A stretch of DNA of 64,000 bases, from positions 3,008,001 through 3,072,000 of the forward strand of contig OY970368.1 in NCBI GenBank assembly GCA_963718615.1. The letters run 5' to 3'. Origin of the DNA: an uncultured cyanobacterium. Lineage in GTDB: Bacteria; Cyanobacteriota; Cyanobacteriia; PCC-9006; JAAUQQ01. Below are positions 49,832-57,431 of the stretch, in pieces. The translations under genes were made by a program, and so were the position numbers. How positions within the stretch are numbered: the stretch's first letter is position 1; every line of letters begins with the position of its first letter. The notes beneath the pieces were generated by a model, which worked only from the letters and a program-made list of their open reading frames with translations, ran no database searches and was not told where the DNA came from.

Positions 49832-49969
49832 TGCTGGCTGTGGGATGGGTTAAGATGATTCCGATTTGACGGACCGGCTATATCGGGCTGAGGGTATTGT
49901 ACGAAAGCCGTATGGTACTCAATGCTCTGAAAGGGTTGGTTGCTGTGGTGTGGAGATGTGCATAAAACT

Positions 49970-52288
49970 GTGAGTCGCAAATTGAATCGTAACTTCTATC
50001 TATATTCGACGGTCCTTGCCGCGATCGCAGCCTCTGCTGCTCCGGGTTGGGCCATGCCTGGGGCGGAGTCCGACGCAGGGCAATCTCAATTGCCCGTCAC
50101 CGTTGAAACCTCGATTAATGAAACCCCGATTAATTTGGCGTTTCCCGAGCCTGCCGCGCCCCTTGAACCTGCCCTTGAACCTGCCCTTGAACCTGCCTTT
50201 GAGCCTTTTGTAAGCGAACCTGCCGTTGAACCTACTTTAGAGACCTCCCTGGAAGTCAGCCCAACCCCTCCGCCTGAATTTTCCCCAGAGGGCGCGGAGT
50301 TCATGGCGGATCAGCCAGTTGCGGATCAGCCGGTTGCGGATCAGCCCATTGCGCAGCAGATGCCAAGCACGACACCGCCAGCCGCACCAACCGCACCCGC
50401 CCCGGCGGCTCCAGCTCCAACCGCGCCTGGAAGCGAGGCCAGTCCAGCCCCGGCCAACGAACCTCGGGTGTTGGTTGCAGAAGTGACCGTTGAAGGGACT
50501 CAAGGAAGTCCAGAGCAGGAGTTACTCGAAGATGCGGTTTATGGGGCAATTCGCACCCAGCCTGGACAAACCACGACGAGCTCGCAACTACAGGCGGATC
50601 TCAACGCCATCTTTGCGACAGGTTATTTTTCCAATGTCAATTTCCGCCCGGAAGATACACCTTTGGGGGTGCGGGTGGTCTTTATTGTGGATCCTAACCC
50701 GATCTTGCAAAGTGTCACCACTGCCGATACCCAGGTCCTTCCGGCGGAAGTGGTTCAAAACATCTTTGAGCCCCAGTACGGCAAGACCTTGAACTTTAAC
50801 GATTTGCAAAGTGGCGTCAAGCGAATTAACGCTTGGTACCAAGACAATGGCTATGTGCTGGCCCAGGTGGTTGACGCCACGCAAATTTCTGAGGATGGCC
50901 AGGTTTCGCTGGCGGTGGCGGAAGGCGTTGTGGATAGCCTAGATGTCCGCTTTTTGGATGCGGATGGCAATCCTACCGATGCCAATGGCGAGCCGGTTCG
51001 CGGACGGACGAAGCCCTATATCGTCACGCGCGAATTTTCGCTCAAGCCAGGTGATGTCTTTAATCGGCAGCAGGCTGAGCGTGACTTGCAGCGGGTGTTT
51101 GGCCTTGGCATCTTTCAAGATGTCCGTCTTTCCCTGGACCCGGCCCCCGAAGACCCACGCAAAGTAGTGGTGGTGGCGAATGTTATTGAATCCCGTACCG
51201 GCAATATCGGTGCGACGGGCGGGATTAGCTCCTCCAGCGGCTTGTTTGGTTCTGTGAGTTTGGGACAGGACAACTTCCGTGGCCGTAACCAAAAGCTGCG
51301 GTCTGAGGTCACGTTAGGGCAACGGGATTTTCTGTTTGACGTGGGCTTTACCGATCCTTGGATCAAGGGGGATCCCTACCGAACGTCCTACACGGTGAAC
51401 GCGTTCCGTCGGCGATCGATTTCGCTCAATTATTCAGGGGGCGATCGCGATATTGACCTGCCCAACGGGGATACCCCTCGGATTCTCAGAATTGGTGGCG
51501 GTGTGCGCTTCTCCCGTCCTTTATCCCAAAATCTTTTTGAACCCGCTGAGTGGAATGCCTCCCTCGGGTTGCAGTATCAGCGCGTGTATATTCGCGATGA
51601 GGATGGTGACTCGGTTTCTGTGGATGAGTTGGGCAATGATCTAACCTTCAGTGGCGATGACTTTGATGATTTGGTCACCTTCCAGTTGGGCTTGGCGCGC
51701 GATCGCCGCAACAGTCCCATACAGCCTACCCAAGGAAGCATCACTCGTTTCAATATCGAACAATCGGTGCCCGTGGGCAGCGGCAGTATTTTCATGAACC
51801 GGCTGCGGGTTAATCACAGCCAATATCTGCCGGTGCGCTATCTACGCTTTACCGATGGCTGCCGTAAGGACAGCCCGAGCCCCGATGAATGTCCCCAAAC
51901 CTTGGCCTTTAATGTCCAGGCCGGGACGATCTTGGGTGACCTACCGCCCTACGAAGCCTTCTCCTTGGGGGGGGCAAACTCAATTCGAGGCTATGGCGAA
52001 GGGGAAGTGGGCAGTGGTCGCAGTTTCTTGCAAGCCACAGCGGAATATCGGTTCCCGCTCTTTTCGTTTGTGGGGGGTGCGCTGTTTGCCGATTTCGGAA
52101 CAGATTTGGGGACAGGTGACAATGTACCGGGTAACCCCGCAGGGGTCCGCGAGAAACCGGGCAGTGGCTATGGTGTGGGTTTAGGGGTGCGGGTGCGATC
52201 GCCCCTAGGACCTATTCGGGCTGACTATACAGTCCTCAGCGACGATGGTGATCAGCGATTCCAATTTGGTATCGGTGAACGCTTCTAG
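49970..52288 (+). CDS. bamA: Omp85/BamA (Toc75-like) outer membrane assembly factor
   Basis: Signal peptide, Pro-rich N-terminus, POTRA domains, GDLPPYEAFSLGGANSIRGY, C-terminal FGIGERF. GTG start approximate. Confidence 0.94.
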   Translation: MSRKLNRNFYLYSTVLAAIAASAAPGWAMPGAESDAGQSQLPVTVETSINETPINLAFPEPAAPLEPALEPALEPAFEPFVSEPAVEPTLETSLEVSPTPPPEFSPEGAEFMADQPVADQPVADQPIAQQMPSTTPPAAPTAPAPAAPAPTAPGSEASPAPANEPRVLVAEVTVEGTQGSPEQELLEDAVYGAIRTQPGQTTTSSQLQADLNAIFATGYFSNVNFRPEDTPLGVRVVFIVDPNPILQSVTTADTQVLPAEVVQNIFEPQYGKTLNFNDLQSGVKRINAWYQDNGYVLAQVVDATQISEDGQVSLAVAEGVVDSLDVRFLDADGNPTDANGEPVRGRTKPYIVTREFSLKPGDVFNRQQAERDLQRVFGLGIFQDVRLSLDPAPEDPRKVVVVANVIESRTGNIGATGGISSSSGLFGSVSLGQDNFRGRNQKLRSEVTLGQRDFLFDVGFTDPWIKGDPYRTSYTVNAFRRRSISLNYSGGDRDIDLPNGDTPRILRIGGGVRFSRPLSQNLFEPAEWNASLGLQYQRVYIRDEDGDSVSVDELGNDLTFSGDDFDDLVTFQLGLARDRRNSPIQPTQGSITRFNIEQSVPVGSGSIFMNRLRVNHSQYLPVRYLRFTDGCRKDSPSPDECPQTLAFNVQAGTILGDLPPYEAFSLGGANSIRGYGEGEVGSGRSFLQATAEYRFPLFSFVGGALFADFGTDLGTGDNVPGNPAGVREKPGSGYGVGLGVRVRSPLGPIRADYTVLSDDGDQRFQFGIGERF

Positions 52289-52352
52289 TGCCGCTAGAGC
52301 ACCCGCTGTTAGGTTAGCCAAGTCTTAATCCGTTCTGAGCAAATTCTGAGTC

Positions 52353-52382
52353 AGGCCAATGCAATGCATTGGCCTATTTTTT
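52353..52382 (+). terminator. bamA rho-independent terminator
   Basis: AGGCCAATGCA-A-TGCATTGGCCT followed by ATTTTTT. Confidence 0.8.
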
Positions 52383-52401
52383 CTTTGAGGCCCATAAGCA
52401 C

Positions 52402-52495
52402 AAAAAAGGAAAAAAGGGCTTCGTCCAGTTGGATAAAGCCCTTGCGGTGAATAGAGGTGGGTGAATCGATAGAGCCAGTCGTGACCCAATCGATT
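52402..52495 (-). ncRNA. Candidate ~90-nt sRNA (hairpin, C-rich linker, terminator)
   Basis: Minus strand reads ATCGATTGGGTCA-CGAC-TGGCTCTATCGAT, then TCACCCACCTCTATTCACC, then AGGGCTT...AAGCCCT-TTTT. The G-U pairs form only on the minus strand. Confidence 0.5.
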
Positions 52496-52607
52496 GAAAA
52501 AACAGTACGGAAAATAAGAAAAGTTTGTATAAAATCAATCTCAAAAAAGAAATTTTTATCAGTAATTTCGTTGAACTTCTAGTACCTTATTAGTAGCTGT
52601 TTGTGTG

Positions 52608-52741
52608 AAAAAATCGCCTGGCTCTATAAAGCCCCCAGAACCAGGCGAATCACCTGCAAGGACAGTTAGCTTCTCAGAGCGGTCGCAGGTTCAGGAATGA
52701 ATCTTTGGCCTGTGACCCGCTGAGTTGCTTTCCTCTTGGCT
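52608..52741 (-). ncRNA. Candidate sRNA, paralogue A (~134 nt)
   Basis: Shares 5' AGCCAAGAGGAA, core CTGTCCTTGCAGGTGATTCGCCT and terminator with paralogue B; -10-like CACAAT at 52748-52753. Confidence 0.7.
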
Positions 52742-52774
52742 GATAGTATTGTGTCAATTTTGTACTGCCTCTAG

Positions 52775-52797
52775 CCATGGCACATCTACGTATCTTG
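52775..52797 (-). promoter_or_regulatory. Conserved upstream element of sRNA A (CAAGATACGTAGATGTGCCATGG)
   Basis: Differs at only 2 of 23 positions from 53160-53182, at the same offset (-34 to -56) from the predicted TSS. Confidence 0.65.
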
Positions 52798-52932
52798 AAA
52801 ATTCCTCCTAAGTCAAGATTCGTTGATTTACCTATAACTTGTGGTGGAAAAATTCTCAGAATCCTCTCTAGCGCAAAAGTCAGTTTTGGGCGGTTGAGGA
52901 TTAATTCTTGGAAAAGCTCATGACGGGCCATG

Positions 52933-52961
52933 AAAAAGCCGCAGTGTCCTGTCCTGCGGCT
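52933..52961 (-). terminator. Second terminator between sRNA B and the promoter of sRNA A
   Basis: Minus strand reads AGCCGCAG-GACAGGACA-CTGCGGCT-TTTT. Confidence 0.65.
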
Positions 52962-52997
52962 GCCCTAATTAATTTTTTCTGAATAGAAAATTAAAAT

Positions 52998-53126
52998 AAA
53001 AAATCGCCTAGCTCTCTAAAGCCCCCAGAGCTAGGCGAATCACCTGCAAGGACAGTTTGCTTCATCGAGAAGTGCTCCGCGAGCTAGGCTCAGGGGCGAA
53101 ATCTCCAATCTGCGTTCCTCTTGGCT
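52998..53126 (-). ncRNA. Candidate sRNA, paralogue B (~129 nt)
   Basis: Same architecture as paralogue A; 12-bp terminator stem with compensatory changes; -10-like CACAAT at 53133-53138. Confidence 0.7.
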
Positions 53127-53159
53127 AGTTTGATTGTGCCCGCCCCACCCCTAGGGCAA

Positions 53160-53182
53160 CCATGGCGCATCCACGTATCTTG
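53160..53182 (-). promoter_or_regulatory. Conserved upstream element of sRNA B (CAAGATACGTGGATGCGCCATGG)
   Basis: Paralogous to 52775-52797. Confidence 0.65.
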
Positions 53183-53231
53183 CTCTGGGCGGCTTTTTCG
53201 CGGTCCGTGAATTTACTCCTGGAGTCCACTG

Positions 53232-53867
53232 CTAACCCGCCTGATTGGCTAGAGGGGTCGGTCCATAGGCCTCCCAGGTCATTTCAACCAGCGCCGTTAG
53301 CAGCGCTACAGCAACCATGGCGTTACCGGGGCGATCGCTCAAGCTAATAACGGGACAATTGCTCTGGTGGAGTTGCTTAATCCAATCCAAGTCTGGAGCA
53401 AGCAGGGGTGGCGTCGCAATGACTAAAGCCGGATGGAGGCTCTGCTGTTGGATCAATCGCACTAAGCTGGCGAGGGCACTGACTTCCTGACCGATGACAA
53501 AAATACCGTTGGGGTAGCGCTGCGCTAGGGTCTCTAGCCCCCAAGCAGTGCGCGTTTTCTCGCGCTGCGGACGCATGATGGCTTCCTGGCAGCAGTAAAT
53601 CGGATTGGCAAAGCTGGCTTGAAAAACGGGCATCAGCGCCACTTGAACCGCTGGAATATCAACAATGACTGTGTTGCGAGCAGCCAACGCGGCAGCACCA
53701 GACCGCAAGGCTTCCTCCGGGCAATTGAGCCGCGACCCATAGCCAAAATCCCCGGTCACCGAGACCATTCGACGGATCATCTCGTAAACCGCCGGAGCGA
53801 CGTCTCGGGAACCCAGCTCCTGTTCTAGGGCGTTGAAGCGTTGTGCATCGGTTGGATGAAGGTCCAT
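53232..53867 (-). CDS. Precorrin-8X methylmutase (CobH/CbiC)-like protein, degenerate active site
   Basis: CobH-like sequence (YEMIRR...GDF, GAAALAAR..VIVD, RTAWG, IFVIGQ) without the usual IHA His or GRKGGS motif. Confidence 0.75.
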   Translation of the reverse strand: MDLHPTDAQRFNALEQELGSRDVAPAVYEMIRRMVSVTGDFGYGSRLNCPEEALRSGAAALAARNTVIVDIPAVQVALMPVFQASFANPIYCCQEAIMRPQREKTRTAWGLETLAQRYPNGIFVIGQEVSALASLVRLIQQQSLHPALVIATPPLLAPDLDWIKQLHQSNCPVISLSDRPGNAMVAVALLTALVEMTWEAYGPTPLANQAG

Positions 53868-55137: not shown

Positions 55138-55275
55138 TTGACGCTCATCCACCCAATCGCTAGGCGATATGGATGGAGATTCCTGTTTCACAGACTCTTG
55201 GCTAGATAGCAGCACATTCATGCCGCCACCCCGCCAGACCGTCTCCACAAGCCTTTTCTTGAACCGTGCGCCCCA
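55138..55275 (-). ncRNA. TnpB omega (re)RNA scaffold, copy 2; 5' end approximate
   Basis: Same structured right-end region as copy 1. Confidence 0.7.
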
Positions 55276-56404
55276 CGGCTCTTTGTTTGATTACAATTGC
55301 GCTGGCAATATCCCGAGGCATCGATGACCCGCAATGGGGACAATTATGCCAACGGTCTGAAAGCGTCTTTTTGACAGCATGACCACAATCAGGGCATTGC
55401 TGAGAGGTTCCACGGGCATCCACTTTTAGATACCCCTTCCCTCGCTTAAAACACACCCAGGGCAAAATCTGATTCAGGAACTGTCCCAAGCCAGCATCGA
55501 GCATGTGTTTACCCAACATGCCACGGGACAAGCCCACTAGATTCAGATTCTCCACCACAATCACATCGCCCCGATCACAGAGCAAATGAGCAATCTTGAA
55601 GTGAAAATCCTTGCGAGTGTTGCTGATTCGTTCATGCAGTTTTGCGATCTTAAGCTGAAGTTTTTTCCAGTTCTTCGACCCCAGCACCTTTTTCTTCAAC
55701 CGGCGTTGCAGCAATTTCAGCTCGCTTTGCAGGTCAACGAAAAACCGAGGACGATGAACTTGCAGCCCATCCGAGGCTGACAGGAAATATTCCAACCCCA
55801 CATCGACACCCACACACTGACCTACCAATGGCACATCGGGAATGGACAACTCCGCTTGAAAACAGAGCATCACATAAAACCCTGACGCCCGCTTCACTAT
55901 CCTGGCCTGCTTCACCTGGAAGCCTTCGGGATAGGGCCGAGACTGCCGGATAGCAATTTTCCCAATACTGGGAAGATTTACCCACCCGTCTCCCAGTGGA
56001 GTCTTGCCCAATTGAGGAAACAGAAACGACTTCATTTGCCCCGACTTCTTAAACCGAGGAAACCCAAAACCCCGCTCTGCCCTATCCTTGAATGCTTTTT
56101 CTAAAGTCTTCAGCACTTGCTGAAGGGATTGAGCATTGACAGACTTGAGGTCAGGATTAGTCTTCTTGGCTTGGGTCAGGGATTTGCACTGGTGAGCAAA
56201 ACCGGGATAGGGAGCATCCGCCGCCATGATGTACTCACCCCGAATTGAGCATGCATTGATAGGACACTTTCTTGAAGCAATCCAGTCCTTGCGCTCTTTG
56301 AGGGCATAATTCCAAACCTTTCGGCAGACATCTAAGCTATTTTCTAGCTCCTCAATCTGCTGAGCGGTTGGCTTCAGTTTGTACTCATAGGTCAGTGTTA
56401 GCAT
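55202..56404 (-). CDS. tnpB: RNA-guided endonuclease TnpB
   Basis: RuvC D/E/D and zinc ribbon intact; 7 substitutions and a different C-terminal tail relative to copy 1. Confidence 0.95.
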   Translation of the reverse strand: MLTLTYEYKLKPTAQQIEELENSLDVCRKVWNYALKERKDWIASRKCPINACSIRGEYIMAADAPYPGFAHQCKSLTQAKKTNPDLKSVNAQSLQQVLKTLEKAFKDRAERGFGFPRFKKSGQMKSFLFPQLGKTPLGDGWVNLPSIGKIAIRQSRPYPEGFQVKQARIVKRASGFYVMLCFQAELSIPDVPLVGQCVGVDVGLEYFLSASDGLQVHRPRFFVDLQSELKLLQRRLKKKVLGSKNWKKLQLKIAKLHERISNTRKDFHFKIAHLLCDRGDVIVVENLNLVGLSRGMLGKHMLDAGLGQFLNQILPWVCFKRGKGYLKVDARGTSQQCPDCGHAVKKTLSDRWHNCPHCGSSMPRDIASAIVIKQRAVGRTVQEKACGDGLAGWRHECAAI

Positions 56405-56431
56405 GGTCTTATGCTAGCTTAGTCGCCTACA

Positions 56432-56845
56432 ATGTCACAACCGTTAAATACCCTCCACCACTGCTCCTATAATCTTCAGTTCCACTTAGTCGCTTGCACT
56501 AAGTACCGACGAAAGTGCATCACAAAACCCATGCTGGAAAGGATGCGAGAGATATTCGCGCAGACGCTCGTTAAGTGGGATGGCAACCTGCTTGAGTTTA
56601 ATGGGGAGGCTGACCATGTTCATCTTCTTATCTCGATCAATCCCAAGGTTCAGCCGTCAAAGTTGGTGAACAACTTAAAAACTGTCTCTAGTCGGTTACT
56701 CAGGAAAGAGTTTGGTGAACACCTTAATCAGATCTACCAAGATAAGCCGATTTTTTGGAGTCGTTCCTACTGCATTATTTCTTGTGGCGGAGCCCCTATA
56801 TCTGTTCTCAGGCAATATATTCAACAGCAGGCCGAGATTGATTAG
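56432..56845 (+). CDS. tnpA: IS200-family Y1 (HUH) transposase TnpA
   Basis: HLVACTKYRR, DHVHLL, LKTVSSR, FWSRSY, YIQQQ. Confidence 0.95.
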   Translation: MSQPLNTLHHCSYNLQFHLVACTKYRRKCITKPMLERMREIFAQTLVKWDGNLLEFNGEADHVHLLISINPKVQPSKLVNNLKTVSSRLLRKEFGEHLNQIYQDKPIFWSRSYCIISCGGAPISVLRQYIQQQAEID

Positions 56846-56933
56846 TTGCTTCCTGCGGTCGCGCTCCGCTTCACCACCCCCTAACCCTTCGGGTATAGGC
56901 GGAGCACTGCGGAGATTTCTGGTAGAACAGAAT

Positions 56934-57431
56934 ATGAAGTATTGGTTGATGAAGTCGGAGCCTGATTTGTATGGCATCGACGATTTAAGGCGGGACCAGA
57001 CGGAGATCTGGGATGGGGTGCGTAATTATCAGGCGCGCAATTTTTTGCGATCGATGGCGGTGGGGGACTTAGCGTTTTTTTATCATTCCAATACGAAGCC
57101 ACCGGGGATTGTCGGGCTGATGACGATCGCCGAAGCCGATATCGTCGATCCCAGCCAATTTGATCCGGCCCACAAGTATTACGATCCCAAATCTCCCGAG
57201 AGCAATCCCCGCTGGCGAACGGTGAAGGTGCAATATGTAGAAACCTTCCAGCAGATGCTGACGCTGGATCAGCTCAAGGCTGAATTTCAGCCCGAGAAGT
57301 TGGGGGTGGTGCGCCGGGGCAATCGCCTTTCGGTGATGCCGGTGGAGGAGGCGATCGCCCAGCGTCTGTTAGCCATGGCCCAGACCCGTACCCCACCCCC
57401 CGTACCCCATCACCCCATAACTCCCCCATAA
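56934..57431 (+). CDS. EVE domain protein
   Basis: MKYWLMKSEP, WDGVRNYQARN, FFYHS, YYDPKS, RLSVMPV; C-terminal tail encoded by CCCCAT-type repeats. Confidence 0.93.
   Translation: MKYWLMKSEPDLYGIDDLRRDQTEIWDGVRNYQARNFLRSMAVGDLAFFYHSNTKPPGIVGLMTIAEADIVDPSQFDPAHKYYDPKSPESNPRWRTVKVQYVETFQQMLTLDQLKAEFQPEKLGVVRRGNRLSVMPVEEAIAQRLLAMAQTRTPPPVPHHPITPP

Follow-up and report, generated by a model that had tools for sequence, protein, structure and literature searches.

What is encoded by two similar segments that lie one behind the other on the minus strand, in the 940-nt gap between bamA and a CbiC/CobH-like gene? The window in which they occur is a stretch of 64,000 nucleotides from the genome of an uncultured cyanobacterium, and the pair had been noticed in an earlier note made from the letters of this stretch alone. 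We assign a probability of about two in three to the reading that the segments, here called copy A and copy B, are two tandem paralogous genes for a trans-acting small regulatory RNA of about 130 nt, each with its own promoter and its own terminator. The observation of a tandem sRNA pair is confirmed: a direct check of the sequence recovered every listed element at its minus-strand position (Table 1). The interpretation that the earlier note gave to the pair as a whole is partly supported, as detailed below.

A repeat finder revealed three blocks of similarity between the two copies. These are 66 nt long with 92% identity (52608-52673 and 52998-53063, spacing 390), 28 nt long with 79% identity (52726-52753 and 53111-53138, spacing 385) and 23 nt long with 91% identity (52775-52797 and 53160-53182, spacing 385). 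Two exact matches in the window were found for a 22-nt core as well as for the 23-nt upstream element, compared with none expected from 100 shuffles. Common to A and B are the promoter geometry, the 5' end AGCCAAGAGGAA, a 3' block, which reads GAAGC(A/U)AACUGUCCUUGCAGGUGAUUCGCC in both, and the terminator. The middles have no sequence relation, yet each folds as a hairpin, so that folding reproduces what had been described for this part of the two copies.

Table 1. Coordinates of the tandem sRNA genes, their signals and neighbouring genes in the window. Positions relative to the start refer to the putative +1 of the respective copy.
Feature	Position	Strand	Remarks
sRNA gene, copy A	52998-53126	minus	129 nt; putative +1 at 53126, 3' end at 52998
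sRNA gene, copy B	52608-52741	minus	134 nt; putative +1 at 52741, 3' end at 52608
Upstream element of A	53160-53182	minus	-56 to -34; GTG-N8-ATG; putative activator site
Upstream element of B	52775-52797	minus	-56 to -34; GTA-N8-ATG
-10-like CACAAT of A	53133-53138	minus	-12 to -7
-10-like CACAAT of B	52748-52753	minus	-12 to -7
B-specific block GTAAATCAACGAATCTTGAC	52812-52831	minus	about 70-90 nt upstream of the putative +1 of B
Terminator hairpin of A	53004-53038	minus	12-bp stem, loop with GGGGGCUUUA; U6 at 52998-53003
Terminator hairpin of B	52614-52648	minus	U6 at 52608-52613; compensatory differences compared with A
Omp85/BamA gene (bamA)	49940-52288	plus	convergent with copy B
CbiC/CobH-like gene	53232-53867	minus	directly upstream; Pfam PF02570, E 4.8e-39
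IS200/IS605 pair ORFs	55202-56845 and 56712-57431	minus and plus	TnpB-like, Y1 transposase

The two units are conserved, structured and non-coding, and each has a terminator and a conserved promoter-like geometry. Two features by which free-standing sRNAs are recognized are present in both: a terminator hairpin with a U tract, and compensatory changes in the fold in the absence of a conserved ORF. The terminator stems have 12-13 bp, are followed by U6 and enclose a loop which contains GGGGGCUUUA. Two pairs of the stem distinguish A from B, one by a double change (A-U/G-C) and the other by a single change (C-G/U-G), just as the earlier note had described. We infer that transcription of A and B begins at the putative +1 positions and that both RNAs are trans-acting. 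A consensus scan for sigma-70 promoters and intrinsic terminators called neither signal at either copy, the promoters because there is no -35 box, and the terminators because their loops of 9-11 nt exceed the limit of 8 set in the scan.

Copy B folds with -53.3 kcal/mol (z = -3.13). The fold of copy A (-45.7 kcal/mol, z = -0.94) is unremarkable alone, as 34 of 200 shuffles fold equally well. In copy A, the 5' AGCCAAGAGGAA pairs with UCCUUGCAGGU and closes a rod; the central hairpin and the terminator follow. When 13 tandem-type and 42 single-copy sequences were folded one by one, a shared architecture emerged, in which the 5' end pairs with UCCUU(A/G)CAGGU (helix P1) and so closes a long irregular rod; a short linker and the terminator hairpin follow. 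The exception is L042, a tandem-type sequence with a different fold.

The rod-plus-terminator fold is backed by covariation. In a MAFFT alignment of 42 sequences, which is not fitted to structure, 94.8% of the cells are paired and double changes occur at 12 of 38 pairs. This paired percentage was reached in none of 500 shuffles, and slid partners gave 30-48%. A model-fitted alignment of 46 diverse sequences, which leans towards the structure, has 89.3% of its cells paired as opposed to 27-50% with slid partners, and double changes at 33 of 38 pairs (234 cells). The terminator stem shows double changes in 8 of 15 predicted pairs across the family and covaries in both alignments (as helix 5 in the MAFFT alignment, as helix 7 in the model-fitted one). 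Helix P1 is invariant in and near the family of the window and covaries in distant families. It is therefore a genuine helix, and structural support within the family of the window comes from the wider family and from the terminator. Covariation and family-wide conservation support the original description of the pair as non-coding, structured and conserved RNAs.

A search of the whole window against Rfam 15 at gathering scores gave no match. When the threshold was lowered to E<=10 for positions 52300-53500, eight weak matches to unrelated families appeared, the best with 23.5 bits compared with a threshold of 70; six loci of the single-copy form gave no match at E<=1. That the pair is unlike catalogued families thus agrees with the Rfam search, where no family reaches the gathering threshold. 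Literature searches by topic and by motif strings, with supplements and subscription papers beyond their reach, did not turn up a description of this RNA; the matches listed for the motif strings came from work on animals or humans and presumably reflect chance agreement with primers. A and B belong to an apparently undescribed cyanobacterial sRNA family, whose occurrence as a tandem pair is specific to the lineage of the window. This sRNA family is of an ordinary kind, though new.

The distribution of the family was analysed at several levels. In the complete genome of 6,095,823 bp, A and B are the sole two copies, all other matches being fragments of 16-19 nt with E > 0.5. A BLAST-type search of 41 related genomes detected the element in six of the seven genomes from the family of the window, where an A copy is followed by a B copy in tandem wherever contigs allow, and as one copy in one genome of another family. 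An exact-pattern scan with one genome per species yielded 52 loci. Of these, 51 were kept as cyanobacterial by record title or, as a few are titled only 'uncultured bacterium', by sequence context. They represent Leptolyngbyaceae, Elainellaceae, Pantanalinema, Alkalinema, Myxacorys, Scytolyngbya, Leptothermofonsia and Kovacikia as well as MAGs labelled Pseudanabaenaceae or Synechococcales. Cultured carriers among them include Leptothermofonsia sp. ETS-13, Pantanalinema rosaneae CENA516, Alkalinema pantanalense CENA528 and Leptolyngbya sp. FACHB-36. The remaining locus (L067, from an Akkermansiaceae MAG) is a chance match that lacks a terminator stem after the motif.

Two covariance models, R1 built from 42 single-copy sequences and R2 built from 46 more diverse matches, were applied to 151 genomes sampled across the class. 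They matched 59 (R1) and 60 (R2) genomes, about 40% of the sample. Both models match the identical 13 of 34 families, mostly in an all-or-none manner per family, and 21 families are without a match. Copy A is matched at 52997-53127 (E 7.5e-12), and copy B is matched over its 3' 75 nt (E 4.9e-12). There is one copy per genome outside the family of the window (12 families) and there are two inside. Exceptions within that family are one member (88% complete) without a match and one bin with four copies on two contig sets. The latter bin (G003) contains two different A+B tandems, on contigs C276 and C9 (loci L008 and L014), one of which is identical to that of genome G004; this suggests a mixed bin. 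Judged from the sampled genomes, the sRNA family is widespread in Leptolyngbya-like filamentous cyanobacteria and vertically inherited.

Among 46 diverse members, the positions with at least 90% conservation are found at the base of P1 (consensus UCUG...cAgg), in the apical loop of the central hairpin or rod (GGGGGCA), and in the loop and stem of the terminator. The terminator loop carries GGGGGCUU, where GGGG is followed by a less conserved c and u and then by a conserved U. The two G-rich loops are the best-conserved unpaired parts of these 46 sequences. In the family of the window, the apical loop has decayed to a GGGC-type or unrelated sequence, and GCCAA has replaced (A)UCUG at the 5' end of both copies. 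The 3' block persists, as does the loop of the terminator.

Orthologous A copies and orthologous B copies are present in three genera. Orthologues align over their full length between genera (76% for A-A, 81% for B-B), whereas the paralogues A and B align only over a 3' block of 66-72 nt and short 5' motifs. This difference and the shared derived 5' end place the duplication after the split of the family and before the divergence of the three sampled genera. On these alignments, both copies have been retained since duplication. The pair thus offers a dated duplication with loss of one conserved loop, which makes it useful for the study of sRNA paralogue divergence.

The earlier note had interpreted the unrelated middles as a variable central hairpin on a fixed scaffold, possibly a module for target or ligand specificity. 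This view is not supported. The tip of the hairpin, GGGGGCA, is among the most conserved parts of the RNA in the 12 other families, so the divergent middles represent a derived, lineage-specific loss and not a built-in module. Nothing indicates a ligand, the RNA being a simple rod without a multi-helix junction. The 5' and 3' sequences of the supposed scaffold are not universal, and P1 changes by covariation in distant families.

We checked the genomic neighbourhood of the sRNA genes. The start of copy A is about 50 nt past the stop codon of cbiC, and downstream of copy B an AT-rich spacer is followed by the end of bamA. A set of 82 loci, in which some genomes are represented twice, identifies the CbiC gene as a conserved syntenic neighbour, located beside the sRNA in 50 loci. 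In 44 loci, the space separating cbiC from the sRNA is occupied by a gene for a hypothetical membrane protein, which is divergent from the sRNA, and a convergent dapB gene is found in 20. The hypothetical membrane protein has no Pfam match and occurs in 108 of the 151 genomes, including those of picocyanobacterial size; it was not found in any of the seven genomes from the family of the window. Being pan-cyanobacterial and not found in that family, it was rejected as a specific partner or regulator of the sRNA. In one locus (L034:1018-2070, minus strand) the protein has a long Arg/Ser-rich C-terminal tail. The next ORF after the sRNA was determined for 66 loci: it is convergent in 30, on the same strand without a recurring family in 28, and absent in eight.

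Three other explanations of the pair were weighed. As each unit is a structured RNA which ends in a terminator, A and B might be cis-acting leaders (riboswitch or attenuator) that govern a downstream gene by premature termination; a same-strand ORF of at least 100 residues within 300 nt is indeed found in 13 of the 66 loci. However, copy A precedes the promoter of B, and copy B is followed only by the spacer and the convergent bamA gene, so there is no downstream gene to regulate in cis. No downstream gene family recurs across the 66 loci, nearly half of which are convergent, the simple rod has no junction and no Rfam riboswitch was matched, which makes cis-acting leaders very unlikely. We give even less credence to an origin of the repeats as functionless leftovers of mobile or repetitive DNA, such as a MITE or a terminator module that was duplicated. 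It would account for two direct copies, and a 20-nt inverted repeat happens to flank A with an IS200/IS605 pair only 2 kb off. The inverted repeat is not seen in relatives, however, and the many dispersed copies that the earlier note had named as the sign of a MITE are not there: the genome holds two copies only. The locus beside cbiC is syntenic in 50 of 82 loci, genomes of the 12 other families carry one copy of the RNA each, and its helices covary. Least likely, finally, is that the transcripts encode a small protein. The only long ORF that overlaps copy B has 85 residues (52674-52931, minus strand), but it is without a Pfam match and runs into a spacer which is unalignable between genomes. 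Moreover, family members differ by indels whose lengths are not divisible by three, and their substitutions respect base-pairing.

Returning to the sRNA genes, each copy would be transcribed from its own promoter, with the -10-like CACAAT, no -35 box and a putative activator site near -42, and would end at its own intrinsic terminator; the putative transcription starts were placed by conservation. Of 106 distinct sequences of promoter plus RNA, 95 have an upstream GT(A/G) at -47 or -48. In 73 of these 95, it is followed 11 nt downstream by GAN (GAG 26, GAC 20, GAA 15, GAT 12); copies A and B of the window have ATG where the other family promoters mostly have GAN. An nAnAAT hexamer is located at a fixed distance across the family (about -13 to -7); a recognizable -35 box is missing from the family promoters. 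The common conserved promoter architecture that had been noted for the pair is thus found with fixed geometry in 95 of 106 promoters. It makes co-regulation of A and B plausible.

In its geometry, the upstream element resembles a class II activator site such as that of NtcA. The offset of 11 nt, one turn, between two similar half-sites would also fit a response regulator that binds in tandem. A PWM derived from 14 promoters of the window's family identifies copy A as the top match of the genome (31.3 bits) and copy B as the second (26.4 bits), the next match having 18.6 bits. The PWM search of the whole genome revealed only the two sRNA promoters as sites for the upstream element, which therefore does not point to a regulon. 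In some Leptolyngbyaceae promoters (L028, L029, L032, L046 and L078) the GTA half-site is absent and the downstream GCGGATGG is kept; therefore, the two halves of the upstream element can evolve separately. The block GTAAATCAACGAATCTTGAC is specific for B. It is near-invariant at 18 of 20 positions in all six aligned B-copy loci (six genomes) and absent from A copies, and the inter-copy spacer outside the block does not align among the six loci. The block may be a second, B-specific regulatory site.

The regulator NtcA has the consensus GTA-N8-TAC (at least GT-N10-AC), centred at -41.5. The family promoters are like that of the NtcA-activated sRNA NsiR4, as it is generally described, in having a -10 box, no -35 box and a GTA-containing site near -41/-42. 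Compared with the NtcA consensus in its familiar form, the second half-site is TAC in none of the 95 sequences and GAC in 20, and an NtcA-dependent promoter was rejected. Unlike NsiR4, the RNA is about twice the length usually given for that sRNA. Repeated paralogues are known for other cyanobacterial sRNA genes, as in the tandem array of NsiR1 and in the Yfr2 family. A and B differ from these in that no Rfam model for such a family, so far as Rfam covers them, matches at gathering scores or at E<=10.

We propose the following mechanism. The RNA would form a rod, closed where its 5' end pairs with the invariant UCCUU(G/A)CAGGU, and the loop of the terminator hairpin would display GGGGGCUU. A and B descend from a single-copy gene widespread in Leptolyngbya-like cyanobacteria, which underwent duplication in the common ancestor of the window's family. 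Of the two ancestral G-rich loops, each copy subsequently retained the one in the terminator and lost the apical one. Action would be post-transcriptional, via base pairing or protein contact at the exposed G-rich loop or loops, and A and B would answer one common signal. We favour such a base-pairing or loop-contact riboregulator, with the G-rich loop or loops as its business end.

The main rival of this reading is an RNA that binds and sequesters a protein or the ribosome and does not act as a base-pairing riboregulator. The two AGGGGGC loops could bind a dimeric RNA-binding protein, or could mimic a Shine-Dalgarno sequence for the anti-SD of 16S rRNA, as AGGGGG could pair with CCUCC judging by the sequences. 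The duplication in the family of the window would then offset the loss of one loop per molecule. It fits this rival that the two loops are the unpaired parts under the strongest conservation, that the 5' end is base-paired so that there is no long single-stranded seed, and that no signal for an mRNA target was found. A partner protein which co-occurs with the RNA is missing, however: the divergent neighbour is as widespread as stated above and was found in none of the seven genomes of the window's family. The failure to find targets comes from crude single-genome scans and is weak evidence. Base-pairing sRNAs, moreover, often carry their seeds in loops (e.g. 6C and sX13). We consider sequestration unlikely, and the riboregulator remains the favoured reading.

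The target searches gave the following results. The complement of the invariant core, with up to one mismatch, has 32 sites in the genome, two of which are the sRNA genes themselves. None is close to a start codon or coincides convincingly with a ribosome-binding site. When 18,580 candidate start regions were scanned for duplexes, no outlier appeared. The complement of the apical loop was found at 56 sites in five Leptolyngbyaceae genomes compared with 89 for the reversed control. Two apparent recurrences of a target for this loop were rejected, one being a conserved coding segment and the other a non-orthologous pair. Near the starts of the neighbouring cbiC, dapB and hypothetical genes, GCCCCC does not occur, save in ORF calls which overlap the sRNA.

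A wider and more tentative picture can be drawn, which as a whole we regard as doubtful. The family may be a clade-wide single-copy riboregulator of Leptolyngbya-like cyanobacteria that acts through twin G-rich (GGGGGC) loops, capturing C-rich or anti-SD-like sequences or a dedicated protein. It would be under an activator that binds GTA-N8-GAN at about -42, and in the lineage of the window it would have been duplicated, with both copies shedding the apical loop. If true, the family would be a mirror image of the sRNAs with C-rich loops in Gram-positive bacteria, and the window's family a natural experiment in which a two-site RNA has been split into two one-site RNAs. The sRNAs 6C (Actinobacteria), sX13 (Xanthomonas) and RsaE (Firmicutes) act through the same short motif in at least two hairpin loops. 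As in these RNAs, a short homopolymer-rich motif is found in two loops here, one of them in or near the terminator. Their loops are C-rich and pair with G-rich ribosome-binding sites, in contrast to the G-rich GGGGGC of the present family, which has the opposite polarity.

A close parallel for the tandem arrangement is OmrA/OmrB of enterobacteria, adjacent paralogous sRNAs controlled by the response regulator OmpR. As generally described, these are adjacent genes on the same strand with near-identical 5' and 3' ends and divergent centres, as are A and B. Each Omr copy is also known to be independently terminated and to have a separate promoter, with one activator site common to both promoters; the corresponding site in A and B is putative. 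There is no sequence relation between the two pairs, however, and the conserved 5' end, a free seed in OmrA/OmrB, is base-paired here. In place of control by OmpR there is a putative activator only, and the present RNA is single-copy outside one family.

Among cyanobacterial sRNAs of similar size, PsrR1 (SyR1) deserves comparison. According to a review, it has 131 nt in Synechocystis, where it is located between fabF and hoxH, is conserved beyond one genus and is absent from marine picocyanobacteria (PMC6596454). The same review reports PsrR1 from each of the five morphological subsections, with Synechocystis, Microcystis, Nostoc and Anabaena among its carriers (PMC6596454). The present RNA is similar to PsrR1, as described there, in size, in being a free-standing sRNA and in its conservation beyond one genus (PMC6596454). 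It was found in only 13 of 34 sampled families, a narrower distribution than the one reported for PsrR1, and beside cbiC and dapB; the comparison is one of distribution and neighbourhood.

Functional work on cyanobacterial sRNAs comes almost entirely from Synechocystis, Nostoc and picocyanobacteria, and our topic searches of the literature turned up no studied sRNA in the named carriers, all of them filamentous and Leptolyngbya-like. As its structure covaries cleanly, its promoter element is conserved and its neighbourhood is fixed, the RNA is ready to be described as an Rfam family, and the promoter site provides a handle on the regulator and regulon of the sRNA family.

Some minor features surround the pair. 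A second terminator-like hairpin, GCCGCAG...CUGCGGC with U5, is located about 40 nt after the terminator of A (52933-52960, minus strand). Its 3' half is part of a 20-nt inverted repeat with 85% identity (52923-52942 and 53189-53208), the other arm of which is just upstream of the promoter of A; like the repeat, this hairpin was not seen in relatives. In the IS200/IS605 pair, the TnpB-like protein has OrfB_IS605 and Cas12f1-like TNB domains, and the Y1 transposase is encoded on the opposite strand. The pair is followed by an ORF for an EVE-domain protein; no link between these ORFs and the sRNAs was found. Next to the bamA gene, a perfect palindromic hairpin, AGGCCAATGCAATGCATTGGCCT, is located at 52353-52375. 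With A runs upstream and flanking T runs on the plus strand, it is probably a bidirectional terminator after bamA.
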